A stretch of 64,000 bases of DNA. Origin: a virus. Position numbers and translations under genes: made by a program. Position 1 is the stretch's first letter. Each line of letters opens with the position of its first letter. Below the pieces are notes generated by a model. It was not told where the DNA came from. It worked only from the letters and a program-made list of their open reading frames with translations, and ran no database searches. Below, piece by piece: positions 11,724 through 41,593 of this stretch. The stretch is from positions 23,664 to 87,663 of IMG/VR virus record IMGVR_UViG_3300025617_000013. One strand, written 5' to 3'.

Positions 11724-11987
11724 ATGAACAAACCATATACAGAATTCACATTACAAGATTATGTTATTAGAGAATTTTCCTCTAATACAACCGCTTTTGA
11801 GTTTGTTTGGCATAGAGATAAAGAAGATAGAATCGTACAAGCAATGCATAACACAGATTGGAAGTTTCAATTAGACAATAAAACACCAAAGGTATTATCA
11901 GAAAACAAACTATTTATACCAAAGGAAACCTATCACCGTTTAATTAAAGGTACAGGTAATCTAAAAGTTAAAATATACAAATTATGA
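11724..11987 (+). CDS. Small cupin-like protein
   Basis: 'WHRDKEDR' and 'FIPKETYHRLIKG' resemble the two cupin metal-binding motifs. Confidence 0.55.
   Translation: MNKPYTEFTLQDYVIREFSSNTTAFEFVWHRDKEDRIVQAMHNTDWKFQLDNKTPKVLSENKLFIPKETYHRLIKGTGNLKVKIYKL
11911..11918 (+). promoter_or_regulatory. TATTTATA putative late promoter (inside the upstream gene)
   Basis: Exact motif 73 nt upstream of ATG 11984. Confidence 0.4.
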
Positions 11988-12289
11988 AGTTAAGTCAAAT
12001 CATATTAGAATCTAAACCTGATTTTAAAGTTAAAGGTATTAACCTTGGGTATACCGACCGTGGTCGTTTCTATAGTGCTAAACTTTACCCTATAGCACAA
12101 ACTGTTAACTTACCTTTAGGAACAAGAAGACATAAACTTCCTTATCAAGAAGCTGAAAAATATATCAAGGATTTAACAGGAATGGATCTACCAGATAGAT
12201 ACTTACCTGATGTATTAGACGGTATTGTGTCTGCATTAAAGAAGAAAGGTATTTATGCTGATCATGATGATGCAATGGATGTAAGTTAA
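11984..12289 (+). CDS. Hypothetical protein with MKLSQIILE leader
   Basis: 101-aa ORF; the leader is shared with 12295, 14525 and 41297. Confidence 0.65.
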   Translation: MKLSQIILESKPDFKVKGINLGYTDRGRFYSAKLYPIAQTVNLPLGTRRHKLPYQEAEKYIKDLTGMDLPDRYLPDVLDGIVSALKKKGIYADHDDAMDVS

Positions 12290-12294
12290 AATGT

Positions 12295-12723
12295 ATGAGA
12301 CTGTCACATGTCATATTAGGAGAGATACTTTACTACGATCCTGGTTTTGAAAGGGAAGTAGATAAAATAAAAGACCAAGGAGGTAAATACTTAGGCTCTG
12401 GAGACTATGGATCAGCCTACCTACTCAATGGTAGAGTCTATAAAGTTACTACAGACGAAATCGAATTAGAACACGCACAAATTCTTAAAGGTAAAAAGAC
12501 AAATAACTTTGCTGCAATATATGATGTAGAGGTTATTAATCCTAAATTAGGAATTATACAAATGGAGGTTTTAGGAGAATACAAAGGAGAAATACCAGAA
12601 GAATGGGTTGAAGCTGTTAATAGAGAAGCAGAACAACACGGTATAGATCCTGACGAACTAGACATTAGACCTTCTAACATTATGGTGAATCAAAAAAATC
12701 ACCTTAAATTAGTTGACATTTAG
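12295..12723 (+). CDS. Minimal protein-kinase-like fold protein
   Basis: Gly loop LGSGDYG, beta3 Lys (VYKVT), catalytic loop DIRPSNIM and terminal LKLVDI; leader MRLSHVILGE. Confidence 0.65.
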   Translation: MRLSHVILGEILYYDPGFEREVDKIKDQGGKYLGSGDYGSAYLLNGRVYKVTTDEIELEHAQILKGKKTNNFAAIYDVEVINPKLGIIQMEVLGEYKGEIPEEWVEAVNREAEQHGIDPDELDIRPSNIMVNQKNHLKLVDI

Positions 12724-12741
12724 GAATATTTTTCTTATATT
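12713..12741 (+). promoter_or_regulatory. Putative early/middle promoter (TTGACA-17-TATATT)
   Basis: Near-consensus -35/-10 with a 17-nt spacer upstream of the primase. Confidence 0.65.
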
Positions 12742-12769
12742 AAACTAATAACTAGTTACAGAACATAGT

Positions 12770-13693: not shown

Positions 13694-14472
13694 TCAAACA
13701 AGGAATGAATATTCTCGAACAAAACGAGAAGAAAAGATTAGACTTTCAACCACAGTTGAAACAAATTAATTTTTTAGACAGAAGAGTTTACAAAAGATCG
13801 GAAGGAGTATACTATCCCTCTGTAACTACCATACTCCAATATATGCCCAAGAATAAGTTTTTTGAGTCTTGGCTCAAAGACGTTGGGCATAATGCCGATC
13901 TTATTATGAGAAGAGCAGGTAAACAAGGTACTCAAGTACATGAAGCTTGTGAAAAACTAATCTTAGGAGAAGAGGTTTCTTGGATGGACGATTATGGTAA
14001 TGCTAAATATTCCCAAATAGTATGGGAAATGATTTTAAAGTTCCATGATTTCTGGACCACACATAAACCAGAACTTATTTCTGCCGAAGAATTTGTATGG
14101 TCAGATGAACATAAGTATGCAGGTACAGCTGATATTGTATGTAAAATGAACGGTGAGATTTGGTTATTAGATATTAAGACCTCCAACTCTATCCATAAAT
14201 CTTATGATTTACAGTTAGCTTCTTATGCTAAGGCATTAGGAGAATCTAAAGGAGTTAATATTGAAAGAACTGGTATTATCTGGTTGAAAGCTCAATCTAG
14301 AGGTCCATCTAAACAGAAGAACGTTATTCAAGGTAAAGGATGGAAACTATTACAGATAGATGAAATCGATAAAAACTTTGAACTGTTTCAAATGATTTAT
14401 AAGCTATACAGTTTAGAGAACCCTAATACAGAACCTATTTATAATAGTTATCCAACTACTCTAAAACTATAA
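13690..14472 (+). CDS. PD-(D/E)xK exonuclease (Cas4-like/phage exonuclease)
   Basis: 'YPSVTTIL', 'GTQVH', 'YAGTAD', 'LLDIKTS' and 'QLASYA' motifs. Confidence 0.8.
   Translation: MIKQGMNILEQNEKKRLDFQPQLKQINFLDRRVYKRSEGVYYPSVTTILQYMPKNKFFESWLKDVGHNADLIMRRAGKQGTQVHEACEKLILGEEVSWMDDYGNAKYSQIVWEMILKFHDFWTTHKPELISAEEFVWSDEHKYAGTADIVCKMNGEIWLLDIKTSNSIHKSYDLQLASYAKALGESKGVNIERTGIIWLKAQSRGPSKQKNVIQGKGWKLLQIDEIDKNFELFQMIYKLYSLENPNTEPIYNSYPTTLKL
14436..14443 (+). promoter_or_regulatory. TATTTATA putative late promoter (inside the upstream gene)
   Basis: Exact motif 89 nt upstream of ATG 14525. Confidence 0.4.
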
Positions 14473-16518: not shown

Positions 16519-16526
16519 TAAAAAAG

Positions 16527-16587: not shown

Positions 16588-17178
16588 ATGAATACAAGTA
16601 TTGTAGATTTATTAGAAGCTTATCCGCTTCCTGAACAAAAAGAAACTCCTCCATATAAGATTTACTGTGATATGGACGGTGTATTAACTGATTTCGAAAA
16701 AAGATTTCATGAAAAACTTAATGAAGTAGGTCCTGATTATTATCCATTAAAAGATATTAAAAAGGTAGTTAAACCTAAAGACTTTGAAGCTATATTTGGT
16801 ATTGAAGAATTTTGGAACTTTATAGACGGTATAGTAGGAATTGGTTTTTGGGTAGGTATGGATTGGATGCCTCAAGGAAAAGCACTATGGAACTTCATCT
16901 CTCCTTACAAACCAGAACTACTTACTTCTCCTTCAAGAGATAATGCTTCTAGATTAGGTAAAAATTTATGGGCTAAAAACCAACTAAGCCCTAAACCAAG
17001 AGTAATTTTCGCCTACTCTAAAGATAAACAGAGATATGCTAATGCTAATAGTATATTAATAGACGACAAAAAATCAAATATTGAACAGTGGATAGCAAAA
17101 GGAGGAATCGCTTTTAGAGTTAAAGACGGTGACATCGGTCCTGTTATTCAAGGACTAAAAGAACTAGGTTATGAATGA
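16588..17178 (+). CDS. HAD-family phosphatase (5'(3')-deoxyribonucleotidase-like)
   Basis: HAD motif I 'IYCDMDGVL', 'LTS', 'K..W' and motif IV 'ILIDDK'. Confidence 0.8.
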   Translation: MNTSIVDLLEAYPLPEQKETPPYKIYCDMDGVLTDFEKRFHEKLNEVGPDYYPLKDIKKVVKPKDFEAIFGIEEFWNFIDGIVGIGFWVGMDWMPQGKALWNFISPYKPELLTSPSRDNASRLGKNLWAKNQLSPKPRVIFAYSKDKQRYANANSILIDDKKSNIEQWIAKGGIAFRVKDGDIGPVIQGLKELGYE

Positions 17179-17789: not shown

Positions 17790-18149
17790 ATGACACAAAA
17801 AGAACTGCTAGAATCAGTATTATCTGAGCTTGTACATATTAAGAAGCATATGCCAAACGGCGAGCTTAAAGCAATGCTTATAGATGTAAAAGACCTAAAA
17901 GAAGATATGTCTGACCTTAAATTTACACTACTTAACCCAGAAAATGGTGTGATAGTTAAGACAAATCAAAATACTGAATTCAGAAAATTCATGCAAGGAA
18001 ACGAGAAAGAGTTTCAAGCCAAAATGATAGAGTTAGCAGAATTCAAAAGATGGAAAGAAGGAGTAAATAAAGCCCTTTGGATATTATTTACAGTACTTGC
18101 AGGTGTTGTAATTAAACTTTTATCTGAAGTCCTTAAATCAGGAGCATAA
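17790..18149 (+). CDS. Coiled-coil protein with C-terminal transmembrane helix (possibly holin-like)
   Basis: Hydrophobic 'ALWILFTVLAGVVIKLL' near the C-terminus. Confidence 0.5.
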   Translation: MTQKELLESVLSELVHIKKHMPNGELKAMLIDVKDLKEDMSDLKFTLLNPENGVIVKTNQNTEFRKFMQGNEKEFQAKMIELAEFKRWKEGVNKALWILFTVLAGVVIKLLSEVLKSGA

Positions 18150-18703
18150 TGTCAAACACTAAAAAGAAGATACCTGCAGATATACAAGCTTTTATGAGGG
18201 AACTCATACAGGAATCTTTACGTGATTGGTTTAAAAAAGAAAAGTGGGTTAGAATATCGTCATCTGGTAATATAGCAGGTCCTTGCGGAACATCTAAAAA
18301 TAAGAAGAATCCAGATAGATGCTTACCCAAAGCAAAGGCACAGAGTTTAACTAAAGGCCAAAGAGCCGCTACTGCAGCTAAGAAAAAGAAAGCAGGAGCT
18401 AAAGGTAAACAGGTAGTACCGAATACAAAAAAAGGAAAAGTAACAAAAGCATATGTTAGAGAAATGATACATCAAGTTATCATGGAAAAAGATGATAGAT
18501 GTACTCGCATTGCTAAACGTAAATACGATACCTGGCCATCAGCTTATGCTTCAGGAGCAGTAGTTAGATGTAGAAGAGGTGAAATCTGGAAAGGAGTAAA
18601 AGAAGAAACTCTTGATGAAATGAATTGCAAGTACGGTAAGTATTACTGCACAACCGATAAAAAATATAAGTGTAGAAAAGGACCTAAAAAGTCCAAAAAT
18701 TAA
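18149..18703 (+). CDS. Very basic multi-module hypothetical protein; probable head cargo
   Basis: Three Lys/Arg/Cys-rich segments, each preceded by an [ILV]xE site (LIQE, VIME, TLDE). Confidence 0.6.
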   Translation: MSNTKKKIPADIQAFMRELIQESLRDWFKKEKWVRISSSGNIAGPCGTSKNKKNPDRCLPKAKAQSLTKGQRAATAAKKKKAGAKGKQVVPNTKKGKVTKAYVREMIHQVIMEKDDRCTRIAKRKYDTWPSAYASGAVVRCRRGEIWKGVKEETLDEMNCKYGKYYCTTDKKYKCRKGPKKSKN

Positions 18704-18711: not shown

Positions 18712-18909
18712 ATGCCCGTAAAACTAAAACCCAGCATTAAGCAGTACTTAAAAGATAAAAATGGTAAACAGACTAGTACCTGGGTGTGGGTACATTATAC
18801 GGTGAAAAATACACCTACAGTTGAGTTGAAAAAGTATTATGAAAATCCATCTTTTTCAAGAAAAAAACAAGTAATTAAAAGAGAATTAGAAAGAAGAAAT
18901 GCCATTTAA
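18712..18909 (+). CDS. Small basic hypothetical protein
   Basis: 65-aa ORF in a tightly packed operon. Confidence 0.55.
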   Translation: MPVKLKPSIKQYLKDKNGKQTSTWVWVHYTVKNTPTVELKKYYENPSFSRKKQVIKRELERRNAI

Positions 18910-19105
18910 AAAGTCACAATTAAGAGAGTTAGTATTAGAAGTTATGTACGAAGGAGTACATGACCCTGTTAAACCTGGCATTCTTAAAAAAAGACTCGGC
19001 AAACTTTCTTGCTCAAAAGTAAGATCAGCTAAATCTGGTCTCAAGAATAAAGGAACGCATTATGCTAAAGCGTTACAACGTTATTTAAATTATCATTGTC
19101 AATGA
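18899..19105 (+). CDS. Small basic protein with 'KKSQLRELVLEVMYE' leader
   Basis: Leader similar to 32353 (MKRSELVNLVKEV). Confidence 0.55.
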   Translation: MPFKKSQLRELVLEVMYEGVHDPVKPGILKKRLGKLSCSKVRSAKSGLKNKGTHYAKALQRYLNYHCQ

Positions 19106-19737: not shown

Positions 19738-19745
19738 TATTTATA
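19738..19745 (+). promoter_or_regulatory. TATTTATA putative late promoter
   Basis: Intergenic, 33 nt upstream of ATG 19771. Confidence 0.6.
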
Positions 19746-23124: not shown

Positions 23125-25833
23125 ATGCATAAGTTAGAAAAACTCATATTAGAGTCTTACGTCGAACTACTTAACGAAATGGATGGTGGTCGATTATTTG
23201 ATTATTTTGCTAATAAAGGATACAAAGTAACAGAACGTAGACCAGATGGTTATCCACCAAAACCAGGAGTAGAAGGATATCAGGTAAATAGGGGCAGTGG
23301 TAGATATCCTCAATCAGTAATATTTCAACATAATAAGGATACTGATGAATTTACAATCAGTAGAATGAGTGGATATAGAATTGATCAAAAAAATGCTATA
23401 AAAGCAGGAATGAGAGAAGCAGGCAGTTCAGGAGCAGCCGGTATGGATTCTTATATGACAGATGGTAACTACACACCAGTAGGTATTTCAGCTGAAGGCT
23501 TAAAAGATATAGTAGACCATGTTATGACTGGTTTAGATCGAGAAGCTAAAGCACAAGGTGACTTTTATAAAGCTAGAGGACGTACATCAGGTACTATAGA
23601 TGAAATGGCTAAAGCTGATATGGAAAAAAAAGCCGGCAGTAATGTTATCCAGTGGGAAGATCTTACAGATAAACAAAGAGCCGGGATCGTTAAAAGGTAC
23701 GGTGAACCAATGTTTAACGGAGAGCATGATTTCTTTAGTAAAGACATGACTACCTACTTTAAGACTAATAGTAAAAGTAAAGAAACAGGTAGTATAGGTC
23801 ATTCAATCATTACATTACCTTCATTCTCCTCCCTATATAAGAACTTCTCAGACATTATTAACGATATTAAAAAGTTAATGGGTTCTGATGATGTAAGGGG
23901 AGATGAAGCAGCTAGAGAGCTTTTTGATATCACTAAAACTAACTTTAGAAAACTACAAAGATACCTAAGAACAGAAAGACCTGAGCAATATAGAATGCTT
24001 AAAATGCAGAGAATGATGGAGGGTATCAAATCGTCTTTTTCTAAGATAGAAGAGAAGATGGATATTAATGATCCAGTTATGCTAAAAGTAAGACGAGCTA
24101 AAATGCATTCAGATAGAATGAAAAAATTAGATGCTTATTTAAAATCTCCTGAAGGTAAAGCTGCTGCACGAGCACAAGCTAGTGCTGAAAGAAAAGAACA
24201 AAAAGCTAGAGAGATAGTTCGTAAATTAAAGATCAAGAGAGCCCAAGTAGAAAGAGAGATGGAGAACGATCCAGACATCGAACCTCAAGGAGGCCCAGTA
24301 TCTGATATGTACGGAGACCAATTAAATAAAATTGACAATGCTATTGAAAAAGCAGCATCTGTATACAATAAACCTATGGACTACGATACAGCAGTCGGTA
24401 AAATAAATGAATTTGTAGGTGATGCTTGGGAAAAAAGAAATGGAATTCTTTATGACAAACTTGTTAAAGGTTCTGGAAAATCAGATACTGTAGAAGGAGA
24501 AATTTTGAGAGCAGTAAATAGAATTATATATAGATGGGGTAATGATGGAGATTACTTTTGGAAAGGGTACGGAACAGAAACAGTAGGTCCTGCTATATCA
24601 TACTTAGTTAATAGCTCAATGATACCACAAATAATCCAAAGTAAATTTAATGCTTGGGAAAGTAATAATGAAGGTAAAAATTACGGTATAAAAGAATTAG
24701 AAGATCTTCTTGCAATAGCTTTAGAGTATATAGAAAGGAAAGACGAAAGTGAATATTCTAAGAATACAGAAGATATGTTTGATTACGAATCTGAGTATCA
24801 AGATGAAGAAGAAGATGATTACGATGATTATGATGATTACGATGAAGAAGATGATGAATATTTTCAAGAAGGTTCTGCAACACATGATGATGGTGGAGAT
24901 TTAGATGTAGGACATCAAGATGATGAGCCTGCAATGCTAAAAAATAAAATGTATAGAGCAGCCAAACTTGCAAACATGCTATATGACAAGTTAGATGCTT
25001 ATGACCAAATGCCTCAAGAAGTAGACTTTCCAGATTGGTGGCAAACAAAGCTATCAAAAGCCAAAGATATGATTCAATCCTGCTATGATTACTTAGATGG
25101 AGAAGAAGGAATGGCTGAAAAAGATGCTGAGAATACACAACCAGATATCGCAGCACTAGCTTTAGAGAATGTAAATGAAGACAAATCAGACGCTATTAGA
25201 TGGTTCGGTAACTTAAAGTATTATTACCAAAAAGCCTTTACAGAACTTAAAGGTGAAGACAGAGAAACTTATAAGCAATTAACTAAAGACTTCTTTTCTA
25301 AACTAAAAATTGATAAACACGTACGCCCAGTAGGGTTATCTGAAAGTGAAGGACAAGACTTATCAGAATTAAAACCTGGAGATAAGTTTGAATTCAACGG
25401 AAAAACATTTACCTTAATACAACATATAGAAGGAAATATCGCTAAAGTAATACGACCAAACGGAGATACTTCAACAGTTTCTTTTGGAGGTAAAGTAAAC
25501 ACTGGAAAGAAAGCCGGTATTGGACCTGATGCTTTCGGACAAGGAAAAGGCCATCACATAGATGAAGATCATTCTAAAAACCCAAACGACAAATATGTTG
25601 TACGTCCATGTAAGAATAAGAAAGAGCCTTGGGCGGTATGGGAAGGTGAAAAGAGAGTTAAAGGATTTGCTGAAAAGAAAGATGCTCAGGCATATGCAGA
25701 CAAGCAAAATAAGGAACAGGGGCTAAACGAAGAAAAATCAACTTGTTGCGGTAAATGTGGTAGAAAACACGTTAAAGGAACAAAATGTAAAACTCCTTAC
25801 TTAAAAGGAAAAGATCACTGTAGAACTAAATAG
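23125..25833 (+). CDS. Large modular protein; putative internal head polyprotein
   Basis: Leader MHKLEKLILE...LLNE; modules shared with 19771 and 25835. Confidence 0.6.
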   Translation: MHKLEKLILESYVELLNEMDGGRLFDYFANKGYKVTERRPDGYPPKPGVEGYQVNRGSGRYPQSVIFQHNKDTDEFTISRMSGYRIDQKNAIKAGMREAGSSGAAGMDSYMTDGNYTPVGISAEGLKDIVDHVMTGLDREAKAQGDFYKARGRTSGTIDEMAKADMEKKAGSNVIQWEDLTDKQRAGIVKRYGEPMFNGEHDFFSKDMTTYFKTNSKSKETGSIGHSIITLPSFSSLYKNFSDIINDIKKLMGSDDVRGDEAARELFDITKTNFRKLQRYLRTERPEQYRMLKMQRMMEGIKSSFSKIEEKMDINDPVMLKVRRAKMHSDRMKKLDAYLKSPEGKAAARAQASAERKEQKAREIVRKLKIKRAQVEREMENDPDIEPQGGPVSDMYGDQLNKIDNAIEKAASVYNKPMDYDTAVGKINEFVGDAWEKRNGILYDKLVKGSGKSDTVEGEILRAVNRIIYRWGNDGDYFWKGYGTETVGPAISYLVNSSMIPQIIQSKFNAWESNNEGKNYGIKELEDLLAIALEYIERKDESEYSKNTEDMFDYESEYQDEEEDDYDDYDDYDEEDDEYFQEGSATHDDGGDLDVGHQDDEPAMLKNKMYRAAKLANMLYDKLDAYDQMPQEVDFPDWWQTKLSKAKDMIQSCYDYLDGEEGMAEKDAENTQPDIAALALENVNEDKSDAIRWFGNLKYYYQKAFTELKGEDRETYKQLTKDFFSKLKIDKHVRPVGLSESEGQDLSELKPGDKFEFNGKTFTLIQHIEGNIAKVIRPNGDTSTVSFGGKVNTGKKAGIGPDAFGQGKGHHIDEDHSKNPNDKYVVRPCKNKKEPWAVWEGEKRVKGFAEKKDAQAYADKQNKEQGLNEEKSTCCGKCGRKHVKGTKCKTPYLKGKDHCRTK

Positions 25834-25834: not shown

Positions 25835-26887
25835 ATGGATAAAATACAAAAACTTATTTTAGAAGCATATAGTAAGGTATCTGAAAGAACTGAAGGTACT
25901 AAAAAACTCAAAGAACTACCAGATGCCTTTGTAAAAGCTCTAAGTAAAAAGTACGGAGAAGTAGATATGGAAAATGATTTCGTATCTCCCAACCTAGATA
26001 CATACTATAAACATACAAGTACTAATAAAAAAACCGGTAGTATCGATCATAAGATTTATGAACTACCTTCTTTTTATAAACTGTACGGTGAATTTGAATC
26101 TATTATAAGTGATATAAAAACTTTAATGGGAAACGAAGATGTACGAAACGATCAAGCAGCCCGTGAATTATTTGAACTTATCAAAACTAACTTTAGAAAA
26201 CTTCAAAGCTACTTAAGAAAGGAAAGACCAGATCAATATGCTATCATAAGAGGTAGAGCAGAATTAAAAGAACTACATGAATCTTTTTTAAAAACCGCTT
26301 CACTTATTAACGAGTCTTTAATTGATGAGTTAGAAGATAAACCAGAACCTGAAGAGGAACCTGATACTGATGCTCCAAAAGAAACTGTTCTTGAAGATGC
26401 TACAGATAAAATTTTAGGTAAATTTCCAACTTTAAAAGCTGCTATAACTAAACTTCAAACAGAAGACTTTAAAGAGTTTGTAGACAGTATAGATTGGATT
26501 TCACCCCGACCTACTTCTTTTCGTATTAATTTAAAAAACGGACAAGATTACGTTTTAAAATGGACAGGTAAATCATTTCAAGCTCAAATTTTAGGTAAAA
26601 GGTATTTACTTTCTAATATAGCAGACTATCAACAAGCTCTTGATAAATTAGCCATACTCTATAAAGAAGCACCTTTAAAAGGAGCAGGAGAAGGAGAAGG
26701 CGGAGAAACAGGAGATGAATTTACCGGAGGTGGAGGAGGAGATTTTCCTGGCGAAGAAGGTGGAGCAACAGGAGGTGAAGATGACTTTGCAGCAGACGAT
26801 ACCGGAGGCGGTGATGAAGGTGGCGGAGAAGATTTATCCGGTGAACCAATAGATTTTGAAGACACAGCAGAAGAACCAGAAGCATAG
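25835..26887 (+). CDS. Modular hypothetical protein with acidic Gly-rich tail; probable head protein
   Basis: Leader MDKIQKLILE; N-terminal module paralogous to a segment of 23125. Confidence 0.6.
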   Translation: MDKIQKLILEAYSKVSERTEGTKKLKELPDAFVKALSKKYGEVDMENDFVSPNLDTYYKHTSTNKKTGSIDHKIYELPSFYKLYGEFESIISDIKTLMGNEDVRNDQAARELFELIKTNFRKLQSYLRKERPDQYAIIRGRAELKELHESFLKTASLINESLIDELEDKPEPEEEPDTDAPKETVLEDATDKILGKFPTLKAAITKLQTEDFKEFVDSIDWISPRPTSFRINLKNGQDYVLKWTGKSFQAQILGKRYLLSNIADYQQALDKLAILYKEAPLKGAGEGEGGETGDEFTGGGGGDFPGEEGGATGGEDDFAADDTGGGDEGGGEDLSGEPIDFEDTAEEPEA

Positions 26888-31501: not shown

Positions 31502-32356
31502 ATGAAAATTAAGCATTCAAAATTCCGTAATACCGGTCTGATATTTGAACTACTAGTTAAGCAAGTAGCTTCAGATACTCTGAATAATAGAGATTCAGCA
31601 GCTGTAAGTATTATTAAAAAGTACTACGCTGGGAAGACTAGTTTAGCGAAAGAATATAAACTTTACGAATTTATAACTAAAAATAAAAACGTATCTCAAT
31701 CTAAAGCTGAAGCTATAGTTTCTACTATAACAGAGATTTCTAGAAAACTTGATCAAAAACTTCTCAAAAAACAGAAGTATGAACTTATATCTGAAATTAA
31801 AGCTAATTACAATATAGATGAGTTTTTCAGTATACAGGTAAGGGATTACAAAGGTTTAGCTGCATTATACTGTTTACTAGAAGCACAAAATAATTCTAAT
31901 TTAGTTAATCCGCAAACTTTAGTAGATAATAAGACTACTATATTAGAGCATTTAACTGAAGAACCTCAAAAGGAAAAGAACGTTAAGGATACATTAATAG
32001 AAGATTATTCTAAATACGATAAAGACCTTAGGTTACTTACTTTTAAAATATTACTAGAGAAGTTTAACGATAACTATAAAGACTTACTCCCACAACAGAA
32101 AAGAATACTTAAAGAGTTTATAACCTCAGTTAATTCAGATACAAGATTACGTAATACTGTTAACGAAGAGTTAAGTATAATTCTTTCTGAAATTAAGTCA
32201 CTAATAGGAAAAGTAGAGGATAAAGTAATAAAGATTAAATTAGACGAAATAACTAAGACTATTAAACCTTTATCTAATAAAGAAAAAGTTACAGATAGCC
32301 ATTTAGTTAACCTGATGCAATATTACGACTTAATACAGGAACTAAAGAATATATGA
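31502..32356 (+). CDS. Head-module hypothetical protein (helical; possible prohead core component)
   Basis: Lies between portal and protease; 284-aa helical protein. Confidence 0.55.
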   Translation: MKIKHSKFRNTGLIFELLVKQVASDTLNNRDSAAVSIIKKYYAGKTSLAKEYKLYEFITKNKNVSQSKAEAIVSTITEISRKLDQKLLKKQKYELISEIKANYNIDEFFSIQVRDYKGLAALYCLLEAQNNSNLVNPQTLVDNKTTILEHLTEEPQKEKNVKDTLIEDYSKYDKDLRLLTFKILLEKFNDNYKDLLPQQKRILKEFITSVNSDTRLRNTVNEELSIILSEIKSLIGKVEDKVIKIKLDEITKTIKPLSNKEKVTDSHLVNLMQYYDLIQELKNI

Positions 32357-32592
32357 AACGATCTGAATTAGTTAATCTAGTTAAAGAAGTTTTAGGGGAG
32401 TTAGATGAAGCAAACGTAACCGGTGGATCAGCAACCTTTACACCAGGTACCGGAGCACAATATGCTACTCCTAACGCCTTTTCAAAAAATAAAAAAGGTA
32501 ACAGAGCAACAAAATTATTAAAGAAATTAGGCTGGAAAAAGCAGGAACGCCCAAAACGGCCATCACATACTAAAATGTTTGACTACTTATGA
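32353..32592 (+). CDS. Small head-associated protein with cleavable-looking leader
   Basis: MKRSELVNLVKEVLGELDE followed by a Gly/Thr linker and a basic tail. Confidence 0.55.
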   Translation: MKRSELVNLVKEVLGELDEANVTGGSATFTPGTGAQYATPNAFSKNKKGNRATKLLKKLGWKKQERPKRPSHTKMFDYL

Positions 32593-34702: not shown

Positions 34703-35281
34703 ATGTCACAACTATTAGTAGACGTTACCCCTTTTAAACCAACTATTAGAGAATCCAAAGAAAAACCCGGAGTCTTTGAAGTAGAAGGTGTATTACAAAG
34801 AGCAGTAGCTAAAAATCAGAATGGACGTACTTATAGTAAAGACATCCTAATGAGAGAAGCTAAGAGATATGTTGAAGAGTTCGTAAAGGTAGGTAATGCC
34901 TTTGGAGAACTCGACCACCCTGAATCCCCAGTTGTCTCTTTAAAGAACGCCTCCCATATAGTAAAGGATTTATGGTGGAAAGGAGACGACCTTATGGGAC
35001 GTGTTGAACTATTAAATACACCAGCCGGTAATATTGTAAAAGAGATATGTAAAGCAGGTCATACAATAGGTATCTCATCTAGAGGAACCGGTTCAGTACA
35101 ACAAACAAACGAAGGTACTTTAGAAGTACAAGACGACTTTGAATTAGTATGTTGGGACTTTGTATCTAATCCATCTACACATGGAGCATTTATGAACCCA
35201 GTATCCTTAAATGAAGGTAAAGTTAAAGTATCTAAATATTCTAATTTAGATTCAATTATAAACGATATTTTAAGAGCCTAA
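34703..35281 (+). CDS. Prohead protease (T4 gp21-like)
   Basis: 'NQNGRTY', 'GELDHP', 'GISSRGTGS' and 'WDFVSNPS' motifs. Confidence 0.93.
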   Translation: MSQLLVDVTPFKPTIRESKEKPGVFEVEGVLQRAVAKNQNGRTYSKDILMREAKRYVEEFVKVGNAFGELDHPESPVVSLKNASHIVKDLWWKGDDLMGRVELLNTPAGNIVKEICKAGHTIGISSRGTGSVQQTNEGTLEVQDDFELVCWDFVSNPSTHGAFMNPVSLNEGKVKVSKYSNLDSIINDILRA

Positions 35282-35316
35282 TAATAATTCCCTCGGACGC
35301 TACCGAAGGCAGGTGT

Positions 35317-35351
35317 AAGAGACCTTTCAGAAATGAAAGGTTTTCTTGTTT
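35317..35351 (+). terminator. Rho-independent terminator after the protease gene
   Basis: ACCTTTCA-GAAA-TGAAAGGT stem-loop followed by a T-rich tract. Confidence 0.7.
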
Positions 35352-35365
35352 TAGTAAAACATATA

Positions 35366-35373
35366 TATTTATA
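35366..35373 (+). promoter_or_regulatory. TATTTATA putative late promoter of the scaffold-capsid operon
   Basis: Directly after the terminator, 100 nt upstream of ATG 35466. Confidence 0.65.
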
Positions 35374-35465
35374 TACATAATATAACGTCCTATACGTTAT
35401 TAATAATTTTATAACTTCACATTACAGTTTACAGTAACTGTACGAAATCACAAAACATTATTTAA

Positions 35466-36698
35466 ATGGCAAACAAAGATTTACTTAAGCAAGCTATTGC
35501 TGAAGCCAAATCCGTACGTGAAGCCGCTATTGCTAACGCTAAAGAAGCTTTAGAAGAGACTTTAACTCCTCACCTAAAAGATATGTTAGCTGCTAAACTT
35601 CAAGAGATGGAAGATTCATCTGTAGAAGAAGAAGTAGTAAATGAATCTATAGAAGAAGAGATTGAAGAAACTGTAGAAGTAACTGAAGAAGAAACAGTAG
35701 AGGAAGAAGTACTAGAAGAGGTACCAGCAGCAGTAAAAGAAGCTGAGGATGACTCTGAAGAATCAGAGGACGAAGCTGAGGAAGAAATCGAAGAACCCGC
35801 TGAAGAAGAGGGTGAAGAAGAAACAGTTGAAGGTGACGAGGATCTTGGAGACTTAACAGTAGACCAGTTCAAAGATATGATCCGTGACATAATCGCTCAA
35901 GAACTTGACCACGATGGTGGTGAAGAAGAACTTGGTGCTGATATGGACGCTGGGGATATTGAAGGAATGGGAGATGAAGAGTCTATGGAAGAACCTATGG
36001 AACTTGATGCTGCTTCTGACGAAGAAGAGATCGACTTAGACGAACTTTTAAGAGAGTTAGACGAAGTAGATGAATACGGCTCTACTAGACAAAGAGACCG
36101 TGCTGATTCTGCTGCATCAGGTCTAGAGAACATTGTAAAAGGATTAACAGCTCTTTCTAAAAAAGCAGGTCCAGCCGCTAAAAAAGCATATGCTGCTTTA
36201 CAAGCTTTAGGAGCAGGAGCAGGTTATGCAATGCGTAACGAAGGAGACCAAGATGGAGACGATGAAGCTCTATCACCAGAGGAGTTAGCAAATAAACATG
36301 CTGGTTCTCCAATGAAAGAAGATAGAGATAATTCTGAATTATCAGAAGCGTTAGAGACTGTTGAAGCTCTACGTAAAGATCTTCAAGAAGTAAACCTTCT
36401 TAATTCTAAATTACTTTATGTGAACAAAATCTTCAAGGCTAATAGTCTTTCTGAATCACAAAAAGTAAATGTAATTGCTGCTTTTGATAAAGCAGAAACA
36501 GTAAAAGAAGTAAAATTAGTATTCGAAACAGTTTCTGAAAATGTAGCTACTCCTAAAAAGGAGAATGTAACTGAAGCTAAATTAGGCATGGCGTCTAAAG
36601 CAACAGGTACTACAGCAACAAAACCAGAAATCATTGCAGAAAATTCTGCAGTACATCGTATGCAAGTTTTAGCTGGTATTAAACCAAGACAATTTTAA
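35466..36698 (+). CDS. Prohead scaffolding protein (gp22-like position)
   Basis: Highly acidic coiled-coil protein between protease and capsid genes. Confidence 0.8.
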   Translation: MANKDLLKQAIAEAKSVREAAIANAKEALEETLTPHLKDMLAAKLQEMEDSSVEEEVVNESIEEEIEETVEVTEEETVEEEVLEEVPAAVKEAEDDSEESEDEAEEEIEEPAEEEGEEETVEGDEDLGDLTVDQFKDMIRDIIAQELDHDGGEEELGADMDAGDIEGMGDEESMEEPMELDAASDEEEIDLDELLRELDEVDEYGSTRQRDRADSAASGLENIVKGLTALSKKAGPAAKKAYAALQALGAGAGYAMRNEGDQDGDDEALSPEELANKHAGSPMKEDRDNSELSEALETVEALRKDLQEVNLLNSKLLYVNKIFKANSLSESQKVNVIAAFDKAETVKEVKLVFETVSENVATPKKENVTEAKLGMASKATGTTATKPEIIAENSAVHRMQVLAGIKPRQF

Positions 36699-36724: not shown

Positions 36725-38308
36725 ATGGAAATTAATTCATTATTAGAAAGCTCAAACTCATATAAGAGTTTACAGGCTGACTCAGCAAAATTAGCTGACA
36801 AATGGTCTGCTTCAGGTTTACTTGAAGGTATTGAGGATAATCGCTACAAAAACAACATGGCGATGATTCTTGAGAACCAAGCAAAACAAATCGTAGCAGA
36901 AGCAAATAGTACTAACGTAGGAGGAGGATCTTTCTCTGCTGGCTCTGGAGAGCAGTGGGCAGGAGTTGCTTTACCTTTAGTAAGAAAGGTATTCGCTCAA
37001 ATCGTTGCACAAGATTTCGTATCTGTACAACCAATGAACTTACCTTCAGGTCTAGTATTTTATCTAGATTTCAAATACGGTGATACTGCTAACGGTAGAA
37101 CTGATAACGACAACATGTACGGTAACGTATCTACTGCTAACGATAAAATGGCAGTTAACGAAGCTGTAGCTGGTGGTCTTTATGGAGCTGGTCAATTTGG
37201 ATACTCAATCAATGAAGTAGACGGTACTGCTGTATCTGCTTCTGTATCTAATGCAGATTCTGCTTCTGTAAACTATGAAGTAGGAATTTCTCCTGCATCT
37301 TACGATGAAGTAGCTGTACCAGTTTCTTCTATCTCTAACTTTGACGCAGAAGGTATCCGTGCTTTCCGTTTAACATCTGCATCTGTTGCTGTAGCTACAT
37401 TAAACCAGTATACGAAAGTAGAAGGTTCAAACGTAGTGTTTGTAACTGCTGATGGAGCTGTATCTACTGACGATACTGTAGTAGTAAAATACCACAAACA
37501 ACCAGTTGATAACGACAGAGGAGACTTTGAAGCAACAGGAGCTAGAGCTGTAGAAAACTTAGCTATTCCAGAAATCGACGTAAAACTTGCTTCTGAAGCA
37601 ATCGTTGCTAAAACTAGAAAGTTAAAAGCACAGTGGACACCAGAGTTCGCACAAGATCTAAATGCTTACCATTCAATTGATGCTGAAGCTGAATTAACAT
37701 CTTTATTATCTGAGTACATCTCTATGGAGATTGATTTAGAAATTTTAGATATGTTAATCTTAGGTGCACGTACAACTGAACACTGGTCAGCTGAGAACAA
37801 CAAAGTATGGAGTGGAACTAACTGGACTACTGATACTTCTGATTTCTATAATACTCAAGGACAATGGTTCCAAACTTTAGGAACTAAAATCCAAAAAGTA
37901 TCTAACAAGATTCACCAGAAAACTTTAAGAGGTGGTGCTAACTTCGTAGTAGTATCTCCAACAGTTGCTACAGTATTAGAGTCTATCCCAGGATTTGCTG
38001 CTTCTACTGACGGTGATCAAATGGACTTCAATATGGGAGTACAACGTGTAGGTTCTCTTGCAAACAGATTTAAAGTTTACAAGAATCCTTATATGACTGA
38101 GAACATTGCTCTTTTAGGATATAGAGGATCTCAATTCTTAGAAACAGGTGCAGTATATGCTCCTTACGTTCCATTAATGATGACTCCATTAGTATACGAT
38201 CCGGAATCTTTCACACCAAGAAAAGGTTTGATGACTCGTTATGCTAAGAAGATGATCAGACCAGAATTCTACGGTAAAATTCATATCTCTGACTTAGATC
38301 AGATTTAA
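36725..38308 (+). CDS. Major capsid protein (T4 gp23-like)
   Basis: 'VSVQPMNLPSGLVFYL', 'AKTRKLKAQWTPEFAQDLNAYH..DAEAEL', 'YAPYVPL' and 'FTPRKGLMTRY'. Confidence 0.96.
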   Translation: MEINSLLESSNSYKSLQADSAKLADKWSASGLLEGIEDNRYKNNMAMILENQAKQIVAEANSTNVGGGSFSAGSGEQWAGVALPLVRKVFAQIVAQDFVSVQPMNLPSGLVFYLDFKYGDTANGRTDNDNMYGNVSTANDKMAVNEAVAGGLYGAGQFGYSINEVDGTAVSASVSNADSASVNYEVGISPASYDEVAVPVSSISNFDAEGIRAFRLTSASVAVATLNQYTKVEGSNVVFVTADGAVSTDDTVVVKYHKQPVDNDRGDFEATGARAVENLAIPEIDVKLASEAIVAKTRKLKAQWTPEFAQDLNAYHSIDAEAELTSLLSEYISMEIDLEILDMLILGARTTEHWSAENNKVWSGTNWTTDTSDFYNTQGQWFQTLGTKIQKVSNKIHQKTLRGGANFVVVSPTVATVLESIPGFAASTDGDQMDFNMGVQRVGSLANRFKVYKNPYMTENIALLGYRGSQFLETGAVYAPYVPLMMTPLVYDPESFTPRKGLMTRYAKKMIRPEFYGKIHISDLDQI

Positions 38309-39396: not shown

Positions 39397-39407
39397 TGAG
39401 TGCAGCC

Positions 39408-39415
39408 TATTTATA
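39408..39415 (+). promoter_or_regulatory. TATTTATA putative late promoter
   Basis: 34 nt upstream of the likely phoH ATG at 39442. Confidence 0.55.
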
Positions 39416-39441
39416 GGTATAAACTTAAAGTTATTAAAATA

Positions 39442-40128
39442 ATGAGTTCAAACCATCATACGGACGATGTATTCGTTCAAAAGAGAAGACCAAAGAACCC
39501 AATTAAATTTAACGTTCAATTAAATAGCGAACAAAAAACAGCAAAGCAATTAATTTTAGATAACCCGATTACTGTTATAAAAGGAATGGCAGGATCCGGT
39601 AAGACTTTAGTTTCTACACAAGTAGCATTAGATCTGTTATTTACAAAGCAGGTAGAAAAGATTATTATAACAAGACCTACTGTGTCTAAAGAAGATATAG
39701 GTTTCCTACCAGGAGATATAAGGGAAAAAATGGACCCTTGGTTAGCACCAATATATCATAACTTATACATGTTGTATAATAAAGAGAAGATAGATAAAGA
39801 ATTAGAGAATGAAAATATAGAAATAGTACCTTTTGCTTTTATGAGAGGTAGGACTTTCTTAAATTCTTTTGTCATAGTAGATGAAGCTCAAAATGTTACC
39901 CATAATCAAATGGAAACTGTAATCGGTAGATTAGGTGTAAATTCCAAGATGGTAATATGCGGGGATATAGCACAGATAGACCTTAAAGATAAAAGAGAAA
40001 CAGGATTTTCTTTTCTGTCTAGAGTAGAAGAACAAGTAGAAGGGTTTAGTACTATAGCATTAGAAAAGAATCACAGACATGATATAGTATCTCCTATACT
40101 AAAAGTATATCAAACCTTCAGAGATTAG
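39442..40128 (+). CDS. phoH: PhoH-family ATPase
   Basis: 'GMAGSGKT', 'ITRP', 'GFLPGD', 'MRGRTF', 'DEAQN', 'GDIAQIDL' and 'RH' motifs. Start moved from GTG 39400 to ATG 39442. Confidence 0.9.
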   Translation: MSSNHHTDDVFVQKRRPKNPIKFNVQLNSEQKTAKQLILDNPITVIKGMAGSGKTLVSTQVALDLLFTKQVEKIIITRPTVSKEDIGFLPGDIREKMDPWLAPIYHNLYMLYNKEKIDKELENENIEIVPFAFMRGRTFLNSFVIVDEAQNVTHNQMETVIGRLGVNSKMVICGDIAQIDLKDKRETGFSFLSRVEEQVEGFSTIALEKNHRHDIVSPILKVYQTFRD

Positions 40129-40132
40129 TCAC

Positions 40133-40140
40133 TATTTATA
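40133..40140 (+). promoter_or_regulatory. TATTTATA putative late promoter
   Basis: 22 nt upstream of ATG 40155. Confidence 0.65.
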
Positions 40141-40154
40141 TATAAACTAATACT

Positions 40155-41297
40155 ATGGCTGATATCTCTATATGGAACGGCAGTTCGACTTTTTCTCCCG
40201 GACAGACACCATTTGGTTTTTACGATACAGACTCAACATTTCAAGCTGAAGCCGATAAAGTAGCTCATTTTTGTGCTACTAGATTAGGTTATCCGTTAAT
40301 GGATGTAGAATTACAATCAGGTTCATTCTATGCTTGCTTTGAAGAAGCAGTAACTACATATGGAAACGAAGTCTTTCAATACCAAATAAGAGAAAACTAC
40401 ATTTCATTAGAAGGTTCAGATAGTACGACTACTGCTAATAATAAACTTATTAACCCATCTTTAGATAGAGTAGTAAATATATCAAAAAATTACGGAACAG
40501 AAGCAGAAGTAGGTGGATTTGTAACTAAATATACAGGTTCTCTAACTATGTCAGCATCAGTTCAAGAGTATGATTTAGATCAATGGGCTATAGATCAAGG
40601 TATTACCGGATCTATTGAAGTAAGAAAAGTATTTTACGAAGCACCTCCAGCAATATTAAGGTATTTTGACCCTTATGCAGGTACTGGAACAGGAGTTCAG
40701 TCATTAATGGATGCTTTTGACTTCGGATCATATAGTCCTGGAGTAAACTTCTTAATGATGCCAGCATCTTTTGATATGTTAAAAGTACAGGCTATAGAAT
40801 TTAATGATCAAATTAGAAGATCTACCTATTCTTTCGAAATGTCTAATAATAAGTTAAGAATTTTTCCTATTCCTAGCAGTAATGCTAACCTTAGATTTGA
40901 TTATTATAAGGTAGATGAGAAAAAAGCAGCTTCATTCTTAGACGGTACAGGTTTAATTACCAATGTATCTGAAGTTCCCTATTCTAATATTACCTATGAA
41001 GGTGTAAATAGTGTAGGAAGACAGTGGATTTATAGATATGCTTTAGCTTTAGCAAAAGAATTACTAGGATACATAAGAGGAAAGTATCAAACAGTACCAG
41101 TACCTGGTTCTGAAGCAACTCTCAACCAAGCCGACCTTCTAGCTGATGCTAGATCTGAAAAAGAAAGCTTAATTACTAATTTAAGAGAAATGCTTGAACA
41201 AACATCAAGACAATCTCAGTTAGAACGTAAAGCTAATGAAGGAGACAACTTAAATAGGACTCTAAAAGAAGTTCCTATGACAATTTTTATAGGATAA
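40155..41297 (+). CDS. Neck/head-tail adaptor protein (T4 gp13-like)
   Basis: 'RLGYPLMDVEL' N-terminal and 'WIYRYALALAKELLG.IRGKY...LN' C-terminal motifs. Confidence 0.75.
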   Translation: MADISIWNGSSTFSPGQTPFGFYDTDSTFQAEADKVAHFCATRLGYPLMDVELQSGSFYACFEEAVTTYGNEVFQYQIRENYISLEGSDSTTTANNKLINPSLDRVVNISKNYGTEAEVGGFVTKYTGSLTMSASVQEYDLDQWAIDQGITGSIEVRKVFYEAPPAILRYFDPYAGTGTGVQSLMDAFDFGSYSPGVNFLMMPASFDMLKVQAIEFNDQIRRSTYSFEMSNNKLRIFPIPSSNANLRFDYYKVDEKKAASFLDGTGLITNVSEVPYSNITYEGVNSVGRQWIYRYALALAKELLGYIRGKYQTVPVPGSEATLNQADLLADARSEKESLITNLREMLEQTSRQSQLERKANEGDNLNRTLKEVPMTIFIG

Positions 41298-41593
41298 TGA
41301 AATTAGCTAATATAATATCTGAAATAGAATTTTTTACCTATGTAGGAATGATACAAGTAGTTTATGAGGGTCTAACTACCGTTGAAATAGCTGATTTATT
41401 ACGTGCTTTACCCGGTGTTACTACTGTTACTATAGCAGCCGACTTAGGAGAAGGTAGAGAAAACTTAAAAATTAAACTAATATCACAGAAAGGCGGTAAA
41501 GAAGCTTTTCAAGCGTTTAAAAGTAATGCTATAAGTAAATATAAACCTATTAAGATACTAAAAGTAGCTGAAAATACAATAGAAAAGAAATAA
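41297..41593 (+). CDS. Small protein with MKLANIISE leader
   Basis: 98 aa; 'LRALPGVTTV' suggests a ferredoxin/ACT-like fold. Confidence 0.55.
   Translation: MKLANIISEIEFFTYVGMIQVVYEGLTTVEIADLLRALPGVTTVTIAADLGEGRENLKIKLISQKGGKEAFQAFKSNAISKYKPIKILKVAENTIEKK

Follow-up and report, generated by a model that had tools for sequence, protein, structure and literature searches.

Unrelated genes in a 64,000-nucleotide stretch of phage DNA (the window) begin with nearly the same short peptide, which raises the question of what such a leader does on proteins that include enzymes. The window belongs to a T4-like myophage in the Flavobacterium phage immuto group, with a gp23 capsid and a Peptidase_S77 protease; its genome is AT-rich, phage immuto is its closest isolate, and the hosts of its family are Bacteroidota (marine Flavobacteria). 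The first-pass annotation had read the leader as a T4-style mark of enzymes packaged in the virion. Comparative support for a T4-style leader common to unrelated proteins is strong, and we consider it fairly likely, judging from sequence, that the leader is a T4-type capsid-targeting and propeptide tag that has been greatly expanded and placed on enzymes too. By analogy with T4, the proteins that bear it would probably be loaded into the virion and delivered along with the DNA.

The leader (h-x-x-h-h-x-E, 9-14 residues, consensus M-(I)-K-L-S-x-I-I-L-E) starts at least 11 proteins. The N-termini first listed for genes 11984, 12295, 14525, 16588, 23125, 25835, 41297 and 36725 (named by their first nucleotide, Table 1) are all present, as are the longer variants at 18899 (MPFKKSQLRELVLEV) and 32353 (MKRSELVNLVKEVLGEL), and to these we add 18149 and a gene upstream of the window at contig position 7313 (MKLDQLRKIIRE). 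The pattern [ILVMFY]xx[ILVMFY][ILVMFY]xE, with the Glu at residue 8-17, matches 10 of the 76 proteins (13%) of the 87.6-kb contig versus 2.2% of equally sized internal windows (binomial p 7e-6), 21/216 proteins of phage immuto versus 2.5% (p 1e-7), and 598/2704 proteins (22%) of 160 related IMG/VR loci versus 2.8%. The position of the Glu peaks sharply at residues 9, 10, 12, 13 and 16, with ∼3-6 counts per position past residue 20, and K(-7), L(-1) and a start Met at -8/-9 recur across 19 families although the search pattern leaves them free. Several leader classes are interchangeable (KLSxIILE, KKSQLxxIIKE and NFDLKKFLVE), and the leaders of the capsid protein and the NT5C-like nucleotidase are shifted in register by one residue (h-x-x-h-h-E). 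In favor of a tag, the 15 matches of the same pattern in T4 include IPII, IPIII, gp24, Alt and gp2. Against it, the motif is short and helical and N-termini in general show some excess of it: ten of the 15 T4 matches are proteins other than these head or virion proteins, and the internal-window rate is 2.2%.

Across orthologues the positions that define the motif (-6, -3, -2 and the Glu) are kept and a hypervariable linker follows. The codons vary freely (Leu CTA/TTA/TTG, Ile ATC/ATA/ATT, Glu GAA/GAG), and because the amino acids are conserved while synonymous codons vary, selection acts on the leader peptide and not on the DNA. One and the same protein body is found behind different leaders or none, with the joint always directly after the Glu. 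Kinase homologues at 29-45% identity retain the leader while others have nothing ahead of the strand that precedes the P-loop, NMNAT-like orthologues occur both with and without a 17-22-aa leader, the KKLCPKG body stands behind four different leaders or just MIEE, and homologous bodies carry a class A leader in the window and a class B leader in immuto. The tag has been gained and lost on one same protein over evolutionary time, and the leader is an optional add-on to the body. Primase, terminase and portal, our negative controls, lack the leader, and a look-alike in the exonuclease (NILEQ) loses its Glu in many orthologues, so that the leader is not equally common in clearly non-virion proteins. 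Two observations count against the tag or limit its membership. Some predicted mature parts are acidic and others basic (pI 4.3-10.1), and in 41297, 12295 and the 26888 family conserved core residues follow directly after the Glu, so that the ‘leader’ may there belong to the fold.

If the leader works as in T4, M-(x)-K-h-x-x-h-h-x-E would use its hydrophobic face (positions -6 and -3 relative to the Glu, corresponding to T4 tag residues 4 and 7) to bring its protein into the scaffolding core while the prohead assembles. The prohead protease would then cut after the Glu (P3 Ile/Leu/Val, P1 Glu, like T4 L/I-x-E), and the mature protein would remain in the head and exit with the DNA at infection. 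In the T4 capsid-targeting sequence (CTS) the targeting residues are 4 and 7 and the processing residues 8 and 10, and the gp21 cut follows L/I-x-E (PMC9026906). The window's ∼10-residue leaders end likewise, and MIKLSDIILE equals T4 MKTYQEFIAE in length and register, both having hydrophobic residues 4, 7 and 8 and a Glu as residue 10. As in T4, the leader is common to proteins with unrelated mature parts. T-even internal proteins are diverse, with only the CTS in common, and their genes lie in variable loci, to which the two hypervariable loci of leader-bearing small proteins are a parallel (PMC3012670). Unlike T4, where only a handful of proteins are tagged, the window's family uses several leader sequence classes on 10-20% of its predicted proteins, including many small proteins of the two loci, enzymes (the zeta-toxin-like kinase and NT5C nucleotidase of the window, an NMNAT-like nucleotidyltransferase in relatives) and large mosaic proteins with copies at module joints. 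The predicted cargo is also not uniformly basic as T4 internal proteins are, the hosts differ, and targeting and cleavage are here predictions.

Table 1. Leader-bearing genes, head-module genes and TATTTATA copies in the window (nucleotide positions).
Feature	Position	Strand	N-terminus	Remarks
TATTTATA copy	11911..11918	+		lies within 11724-11987; 73 nt upstream of 11984
101-aa protein	11984..12289	+	MKLSQIILE (nt 11984-12010)	first gene of pre-primase slot
142-aa protein	12295..12723	+	MRLSHVILGE	second gene of pre-primase slot
TATTTATA copy	14436-14443	+		intragenic, 89 nt upstream of 14525
Zeta-toxin-like P-loop kinase, 313 aa	14525..15466	+	MIKLSDIILE (nt 14525-14554)	Pfam Zeta_toxin, 50.8 bits (cut-off 22.3)
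NT5C-like HAD 5'-nucleotidase	16588..17178	+	MNTSIVDLLE	PHROG 2643, E 1.4e-19, residues 21-180 only
184-aa two-module protein	18149..18703	+	leader ending E22	internal copy ending E113
68-aa basic protein	18899..19105	+	MPFKKSQLRELVLE	longer leader
TATTTATA	19738..19745	+		probable late-promoter element; precedes operon 19771-23125-25835-26888-terminase
902-aa acidic mosaic protein	23125..25833	+	MHKLEKLILE	late operon 19771-29544, terminase gene last
350-aa mosaic protein	25835..26887	+	MDKIQKLILE	paralogue of 23125
79-aa basic protein	32353..32592	+	MKRSELVNLVKE	between portal and protease, T4 gp67/gp68 position
Prohead protease, T4 gp21 family	34703..35281	+		Pfam Peptidase_S77, E 1.3e-33; PHROG 207, E 7.7e-51
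Hypervariable protease-scaffold slot, empty form	35282..35465	.		contains TATTTATA at 35366
Probable scaffold protein	35466..36698	+	MANKDLLKQAIAE	T4 gp22 position, between protease and capsid genes
Major capsid protein, gp23 family	36725..38308	+	MEINSLLE	Pfam Gp23, E 2.9e-82
98-aa protein	41297..41593	+	MKLANIISE (leader-like)	follows head-tail adaptor gene

The gp21-like protease noted at first pass is confirmed by its family match; its own N-terminus has TIRE17, and it is presumably the enzyme that removes the leaders. As in T4, its gene adjoins those of the scaffold and a gp23-type capsid protein. The product of 35466 is probably the scaffold protein by synteny (it matches no family and is 43% identical to that of immuto 125626-126867). 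The slot between protease and scaffold, empty in the window, shows 19 arrangements with at least 10 protein families in 62 related loci (empty in 15), and nearly all of its proteins begin MKLSxhhLE or NFDL[KR]KFLxE. The capsid protein itself carries a matching site. Its predicted 59-residue propeptide (nt 36725-36901) holds four h-h-(x)-E sites, SLLE8, GLLE34, MILE50 and IVAE59↓AN (↓, known or predicted cut), the last of which falls at the T4 gp23 cut position by alignment only, residue 61 aligning with residue 10 of mature gp23*; Q[IVL][IV][AS]E↓A is conserved in 30/30 unique orthologues and in Mel-JY01. The start of the same protein, MEINSLLE↓SS, resembles that of T4 gp24 (MAKINELLRE↓ST), which the T4 record annotates as cleaved by gp21 and whose cut follows residue 10. 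Unlike T4 with gp23 and gp24, the window has a single capsid gene, and a separate gp24-like vertex gene was not found there. The motif is present in 71/71 members of the 32353 family (49 unique orthologue N-termini); 32353 has further sites at LGE16 and LDE19↓ANVTGG, and the junction E↓ANVTGG is similar to the capsid protein's E59↓ANSTNVGG.

The enzyme genes lie elsewhere. An unlikely alternative is that only the leaders of the head module and slots (32353, 23125, 25835, 18899, capsid and slot proteins) are true prohead-protease propeptides, and that the N-termini of 14525, 16588, 12295 and 41297 are ordinary helices or serve another purpose on unpackaged proteins. The enzyme genes indeed adjoin primase and exonuclease outside the head module, which counts against a tag, and TATTTATA is poorly conserved upstream of them. 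This element has 20 copies, 18 of them on the + strand; twelve precede structural gene starts by 22-40 nt. Its conservation reaches 99% upstream of portal, 95% upstream of scaffold and 86% upstream of the 31502 family. From the TATTTATA copies in the preceding genes, 11984 and 14525 had been proposed to be expressed late; those copies exist, but the case is weak, as 35% of the contexts of the 11984 family and 16% of those of the kinase retain the element (versus 3.3% of background 130-nt windows), and in the kinase contexts it encodes P-I-Y-N of the upstream protein. The same alternative draws on the nucleotidase, whose leader is out of register and in which Asp replaces Glu in 4/34 unique orthologue N-termini, and on the conserved sequence after the Glu of 41297 and 12295.

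Against this, of all leaders that of the kinase comes closest to the MKLSxIILE of slot proteins. Across 45 unique N-termini of its orthologues, conservation is at least 90% for ILE and only 0-40% over the four positions that follow; E10 is invariant in the alignment, and the four-residue hypervariable linker is followed by conserved PKAVIMAGGAGSGKT. In the AF2 model (pLDDT 89.8 overall, 52 for residues 1-10) the leader is an unanchored helix, and the best Foldseek matches of the protein are zeta/PezT, AvrRxo1 and polynucleotide kinase. Kinase orthologues, whose distant homologues are found both with and without a leader, and NMNAT orthologues toggle leaders just like the small proteins. T4 with Asp at the last CTS position still targets (PMC9026906). 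The nucleotidase retains its leader as DLLE or ELLKE across orthologues, ahead of a Pro-rich linker of variable length (AYPLPEQKETPPY) and the catalytic DMDGV. Packaged enzymes might serve host takeover or anti-defence; what a packaged nucleotidase would be for is hard to see, which counts against the tag. The ‘kinase’ of the first-pass annotation at 12295 is tentative: kinase-like motifs are there (GSGDYG, VYK, DIRPSN and a terminal VDI), but no Pfam or PHROG family matches, the AF2 model is poor (pLDDT 46.5), and the Atlas gives a weak lead to Phage_T7_kinase only.

It is quite improbable that the leader is a docking helix for a partner outside the prohead (phage GroEL/GroES or a multi-enzyme complex), with neither packaging nor cleavage. 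The leader is modeled as an amphipathic helix, GroES and GroEL are encoded by immuto, the capsid protein starts in a similar way, and in T4 it is the N-terminus of gp23 that guides proteins to GroEL; the kinase, NMNAT and NT5C genes are neighbors and are fused in some phages, so their products may act together. Docking leaves unexplained, however, the near-invariant terminal Glu, the hypervariable linker, swap joints exactly after the Glu, the slot adjoining the protease gene, and a capsid maturation site with the identical motif. Finally, it is hardly credible that there is no protein-level signal and that base composition (the genome is AT-rich, its N-termini rich in Lys codons), a translation-initiation constraint, shared recombination DNA or paralogy explains the leaders, a reading already contradicted by the 6- to 8-fold excess over internal windows, by codons that vary behind conserved amino acids, by low DNA identity among the leaders of the window, and by bodies that are non-homologous in BLASTP. 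In its favor are the paralogues 23125 and 25835, which are not independent cases among the ‘unrelated’ genes.

A tag that is both targeting signal and propeptide would have partial counterparts beyond T4. In the giant phages phiKZ, 201phi2-1 and SPN3US, gp21-related proteases process propeptides and ejection proteins, and, as predicted here, many head proteins including ejected ones have N-terminal propeptides cut after the Glu of a three-residue motif, with several redundant sites per propeptide (PMC10052503; PMC9026906). Their motif is A/S/G-x-E where that of the window is I/L/V-x-E, their propeptides are mostly long (111-254 residues), and a common short exchangeable tag has not been described for them. 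In phage P1 the first 30 residues of DarB suffice to direct this large anti-restriction enzyme and a reporter into the capsid, so that a signal at the N-terminus targets an enzyme to the capsid, as proposed here; the P1 capsid-assembly system is unrelated and has no tag common to many proteins, and Glu-specific removal is not described in the available part of the DarB account (PMC9024508).

The small and mosaic proteins combine the leader with different bodies. The pre-primase slot has 16 arrangements in 81 loci, filled by unrelated small proteins with the leader; in the 11984 family MKLSxIILE is conserved in 10 unique orthologue N-termini ahead of variable, gapped sequence, and the C-terminal half of 11984 is homologous to immuto 102880-103359, whose leader differs (MKKSQLREIIRKE). 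In 18149, module 1 stands behind ...FMRELIQE22 and module 2, with the KKLCPKG... body, behind an internal leader-like ...MIHQVIME113, and both modules are separate proteins in relatives. Gene 18899 belongs to an operon preceded by the TATTTATA copies at 17751 and 17757, and the body of its product has a homologue in the C-terminus of immuto 113188-113946, a protein that begins MKKSQLRQIIKE. Membership of 41297 in the set is uncertain because of the conserved residues directly after its Glu, although MKL and the Glu are ∼90% conserved in 31 unique orthologue N-termini. In the late operon, a tight array of genes that follows the TATTTATA at 19738, orthologues of 23125 begin K-L-[ED]-K-[LI]-ILE-[AST]-[YF], and 23125 and 25835 have in common an internal module of ∼80 aa.

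Short N-terminal leaders that end in glutamate recur on otherwise unrelated proteins of this phage and are a real feature, conserved across the phage family; the first-pass annotation had quoted a set of them, and each of those N-termini was found at its position. The window makes up the final 64 kb of one contig of 87.6 kb, encodes a T4-type portal and large terminase, and has all of its noteworthy genes on the + strand. The closest isolate is Flavobacterium phage vB_FspM_immuto (capsid identity 67%), with Microcystis phage Mel-JY01, an uncultured 484-kb phage and Rhodothermus phage RM378 as remoter relatives. More than 240 close relatives in IMG/VR were found for both the primase and the protease, out of which 160 related loci were fetched, and a second sample comprised 80 loci from a more divergent but syntenic clade of ∼31% GC.

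Counted from the Glu, the leaders share one register, with hydrophobic residues at -6, -3 and -2; position -7 is mostly Lys and -1 mostly Leu. In most families the Glu is residue 9 or 10 and the P3 residue is I, L or V, giving a leader of about ten residues that ends in L/I-x-E, and the start Met is found at -8 or -9 in 86% across 19 leader families. In the same 19 families -6 is L or I in 94% and -3 is I, L or V in 87%, which are the targeting positions of T4 (residues 4 and 7 of its capsid-targeting sequence, CTS); both belong to the search pattern, yet they are also kept across orthologues collected by body homology. A longer kind of leader, class B (18899, 32353 and contig position 7313), has the same register as the KLSxIILE type of class A, and those of the capsid and the NT5C-like protein are off by one residue.

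N-termini were scored against internal windows for the pattern h-x-x-h-h-x-E with the Glu within residues 8-17. Matches were found at 10 of the 76 N-termini of the contig (13%, versus 2.2% of internal windows; p 7e-6), at 21/216 in phage immuto (versus 2.5%; p 1e-7), at 598 of 2704 in the 160 related loci (22% versus 2.8%) and at 244/1235 in the divergent clade (20% versus 1.8%; p 9e-170). The Glu position has maxima at residues 9, 10, 12, 13 and 16 and falls to background level beyond about residue 20, and in 19 of 81 families the leader stands on at least 60% of the members. Non-structural immuto proteins with a leader include QQO91855-58, QQO91863, QQO91870-72, QQO91878 and QQO91881. With the identical pattern, T4 as positive control gave 15 matches among 249, including IPII, IPIII, gp24, Alt and gp2, the other 10, outside the head and virion proteins picked out, being a rough gauge of a general N-terminal excess. 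Separately, a candidate further shared leader, MKKQILSEQF[KR]RMQ.LAGIITE, occurs in the immuto genome (loci L002-L005, for example 25061-25456 and 111675-112139) and, in the form MKEITRLQQLAGILTE, at 6330-6803 of the related locus L251; the remaining sequences of these proteins have no BLASTP similarity to one another, and this leader, ending in I-x-E, is probably a fourth class.

Positions of the features discussed, in window coordinates (single numbers are gene starts)
Position	Feature	N-terminus or remark
2-8650	very large ORF, cut by the window start	>2,880 aa; 3,288 aa in the full contig
9729-10208	SegE-like GIY-YIG homing-endonuclease domain protein	Pfam PF19835, E 1e-24
10120-62012	span of the TATTTATA copies	20 copies, 18 on +, 2 on -
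10997-11134	small ORF, 45 aa	MELTW[LP]QF[KR]N...
11984	pre-primase slot gene	class A leader
12295	pre-primase slot gene, candidate kinase	
13690	exonuclease	MIKQGMNILEQ
14525	predicted zeta-toxin-like P-loop kinase	MIKLSDIILE
14525-17178	kinase, nucleotidyltransferase and NT5C cassette	syntenic across the phage family
15463	NMNAT-like HxGH nucleotidyltransferase	no leader
16588	NT5C-like protein	register off by one
18149-18703	module fusion	internal leader-like stretch ending E113
32353	universal in the phage family	class B leader
32589-34691	module fusion	
34703	Peptidase_S77 prohead protease	
35466	probable scaffold	
36725	major capsid protein	register off by one
38374-38601	small ORF, 75 aa	MELTW[LP]QF[KR]N...
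39400-40128	PhoH-like gene	listed GTG start; ATG at 39442

Paralogy as the source of the common N-termini holds for 23125 and 25835, which are paralogous mosaics; for most pairs it is ruled out by BLASTP of the bodies, which are non-homologous, so that the same leader stands on unrelated mature parts. A cause at the RNA or DNA level is ruled out by the low DNA identity among leaders and by codon variation, since 42 distinct kinase-gene leaders keep their residues fixed and vary their codons (Leu CTA/TTA/TTG/CTT; Ile ATC/ATA/ATT; Glu GAA/GAG). As for the fold, 45 unique N-termini of the 14525 kinase conserve I-L-E to at least 90%, the following four residues to 0-40%, and conservation returns at PKAVIMAGG; E10 is invariant in a 43-sequence alignment, and the 11984 family has the same pattern, with gaps behind the Glu. 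The AlphaFold2 model of the kinase made from that alignment has a body mean pLDDT of 89.8 and a helical leader with a pLDDT of 52, and in it the leader behaves like a conserved, unanchored linear motif. On these comparisons and this model the leader is a signal in the peptide rather than a product of DNA, paralogy or fold.

The first-pass annotation had named a leader equally common in clearly non-virion proteins as evidence against its reading. None is present in the primase, terminase or portal, and the exonuclease, a control with a leader-like start, does end its motif in Glu, yet has Lys there in many orthologues. Asp is frequent at the position equivalent to the leader Glu in 17790. We treat 41297, 12295 and the 26888 family as uncertain members because conserved residues follow their Glu.

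The leader is also detachable, a module that is joined at the Glu. In a search of 1.8 billion representative proteins, kinase homologues of 29-45% identity still begin M-(I)-K-L-x-x-[IL]-L-x-E, and others begin right at the strand preceding the P-loop, without a leader. The NMNAT-like neighbour of the kinase, leaderless in the window, has divergent-clade orthologues both without a leader and with leaders of 17-22 residues, and homologous bodies carry a class A leader in 11984 versus a class B leader in the immuto gene 102880. A small body, KKLCPKG..., follows four different leaders, drawn from both classes, or MIEE alone, with the junction always immediately after the Glu, and in the window it is fused within 18149, behind the internal leader-like stretch. 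Both fusions in the table are made of modules that relatives encode as separate leader-bearing small proteins. In 18149 the leader-like stretch precedes a 'KDDRC' module; in 32589 residues 349-412 correspond to a 75-aa immuto protein from the protease-scaffold slot, and the sequence upstream of them (...NFVDINYDSLSE) is similar to the NFD-type leader, NFDLKKFLVE. These fusions fit a polyprotein reading of 19771-26887.

Several observations link the leaders to head assembly. The protease matches Peptidase_S77 (Pfam E 1.3e-33) and PHROG 207 (E 7.7e-51), placing it in the gp21 family, and it is encoded with the scaffold and a major capsid protein of the Gp23 family (Pfam E 2.9e-82). The gap between protease and scaffold is a hypervariable slot, for which 62 related loci show 19 arrangements drawing on at least 10 protein families, and nearly all of its proteins begin MKLSxhhLE or NFDL[KR]KFLxE; in the window it is empty. 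A second slot lies directly upstream of the primase (16 arrangements in 81 loci), occupied in the window by 11984 and 12295. Its proteins, of 62-142 residues and from at least 8 families, begin almost without exception MKLSxIILE or the one-residue-shifted IILAE/IILNE/IILKE. Gene 32353 lies between portal and protease, the T4 position of the core proteins gp67 and gp68, and its ...LDE|ANVTGG resembles ...VAE|ANSTNVGG of the capsid. As a calibration, residue 61 of the capsid protein aligns with residue 10 of mature T4 gp23*, and just ahead of it all orthologues carry Q-[IVL]-[IV]-[AS]-E|A, the same h-h-x-E; the motif is kept in Mel-JY01, and the predicted propeptide of 59 residues has three further h-h-x-E sites. 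The genes 23125 and 25835 belong to a tightly packed operon with TATTTATA in front and the terminase gene last.

The T4 CTS is MKTYQEFIAE (PMC8442874), in which residues 4 and 7 serve targeting and residues 8 and 10 processing, gp21 cutting after L/I-x-E (PMC9026906). The kinase leader equals it in length, is hydrophobic at positions 4, 7 and 8 and has its Glu at 10. T-even internal proteins are likewise diverse and have only the tag in common (PMC3012670). T4 IPI-III are small and basic, whereas across the 19 leader families the mature proteins, as predicted, have median pI values of 4.3 to 10.1 and lengths of 64 to 507 aa and are not uniformly basic, and basic cargo charge was dropped as a parallel on account of this pI range. 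Because T4 packs and delivers whatever protein is fused to its CTS (PMC9026906), small basic cargo is a trait of those three T4 proteins, and the mechanism does not require it.

Given the likeness to the T4 CTS, the links to head assembly and the pattern of a detachable module, we lean towards the view that the leaders are targeting and propeptide tags of the T4 type. Their removal by the prohead protease is suggested indirectly by the invariant Glu, the hypervariable stretch behind it and the matching site at the position of capsid maturation. The best explanation of the feature is T4's system of capsid targeting and propeptides in a greatly expanded variant, and the enzyme payload proposed in the first-pass annotation is plausible but unproven; a literature search yielded no proteomic data on this phage family. 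A bolder picture, possible although we would not count on it, is that in a whole family of abundant aquatic T4-like Bacteroidota phages an exchangeable plug-in address of ∼10 residues loads into the capsid the products of 10-20% of the genes, a fast-changing set that would include NadR-like enzymes (zeta-like kinase, NMNAT, NT5C) and dozens of small proteins of the two slots, that lineages toggle the packaging of an enzyme by tag gain and loss, and that the injected payload forms a pre-made metabolic and anti-defence kit at DNA entry. If the tags do act as in T4, these phages would bring in a much larger protein payload, richer in enzymes, than any T4-type phage yet examined. In that case the two hypervariable loci would offer ready-made lists of candidates for anti-defence proteins injected into Bacteroidota hosts, and tag gain or loss on the same enzyme would show a function shifting from made-after-infection to delivered-with-DNA. 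The prediction is directly testable since a cultured relative is at hand, immuto on Flavobacterium sp. LMO8, and the short portable tag could become a protein-delivery tool for flavobacterial phages, like the CTS for T4.

Among the enzymes, 14525 has the Walker A motif GGAGSGKT and matches Pfam Zeta_toxin at 50.8 bits (cut-off 22.3), and in Foldseek zeta and PezT come top (E 2e-5), ahead of O-phosphoseryl-tRNA kinase, polynucleotide kinase and, at rank 24, AvrRxo1. Pfam and fold identify it as a zeta-toxin-like P-loop kinase, an activity that is predicted; tblastn against 50,697 phage records returned no homologue. The protein encoded at 16588 contains the catalytic motif DMDGV and matches PHROG 2643 (E 1.4e-19), which points to an NT5C-like enzyme; it gave no Pfam family at E up to 0.01 and no PDB sequence match. 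PDB sequence searches yielded nothing usable for 14525, 12295 or 16588. For 12295 we keep a candidate kinase label from protein-kinase-like motifs (Gly-rich loop, catalytic Lys, D-x4-N loop, DFG-like motif) that are invariant across 19 orthologues: it has no match in Pfam, PHROG or PDB, its AlphaFold2 model (pLDDT 46.5) is too poor for use, and the Atlas gave one weak lead, with Phage_T7_kinase assigned to 10% of one cluster. Together the kinase, the NMNAT-like protein and NT5C form a cassette that resembles, in its predicted domains, NadR (kinase plus NMNAT), and one may speculate that as infection begins it serves to salvage NAD or nucleotides. Fused forms occur as a 746-aa kinase-nucleotidyltransferase protein (P0162), as immuto's 907-aa 'NadR' and as a Mel-JY01 protein of 639 aa whose own start, MGKLINILLSE, is leader-like.

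The motif TATTTATA lies 22-40 nt upstream of structural genes in 12 of its copies. In relatives it is conserved upstream of the portal (99%), the scaffold (95%) and the 31502 family (86%), as well as 17790, PhoH and adaptor genes, a distribution that marks it convincingly as a late-promoter element for structural genes, probably the phage family's own late promoter. The first-pass annotation had taken copies just upstream of 11984 and 14525 as a sign of late expression; the copies do exist, but both sit inside genes and just 35% and 16% of contexts, respectively, retain them, and where kinase contexts keep the motif it encodes P-I-Y-N of the preceding protein, so that late expression of these two genes from TATTTATA is only weakly suggested. 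In the PhoH-like gene the ATG (MSSNHH...) matches the start of the immuto orthologue and lies 34 nt past the TATTTATA copy at 39408; the listed start is probably wrong.

The homing-endonuclease domain protein has the same position in both clades, and its immuto homologue is annotated 'NAD synthetase', which looks like a mis-annotation. The two MELTW ORFs are paralogous, with near-identical starts, and stand 27 kb apart, one in an early-looking region and the other just behind the capsid gene. The N-terminus of the very large ORF, MAIT[FL]R...L[TH][HY]EELD, is common to its upstream neighbour and two immuto tail-fibre or spike proteins; it is a fibre-protein start with no relation to the leaders described above.
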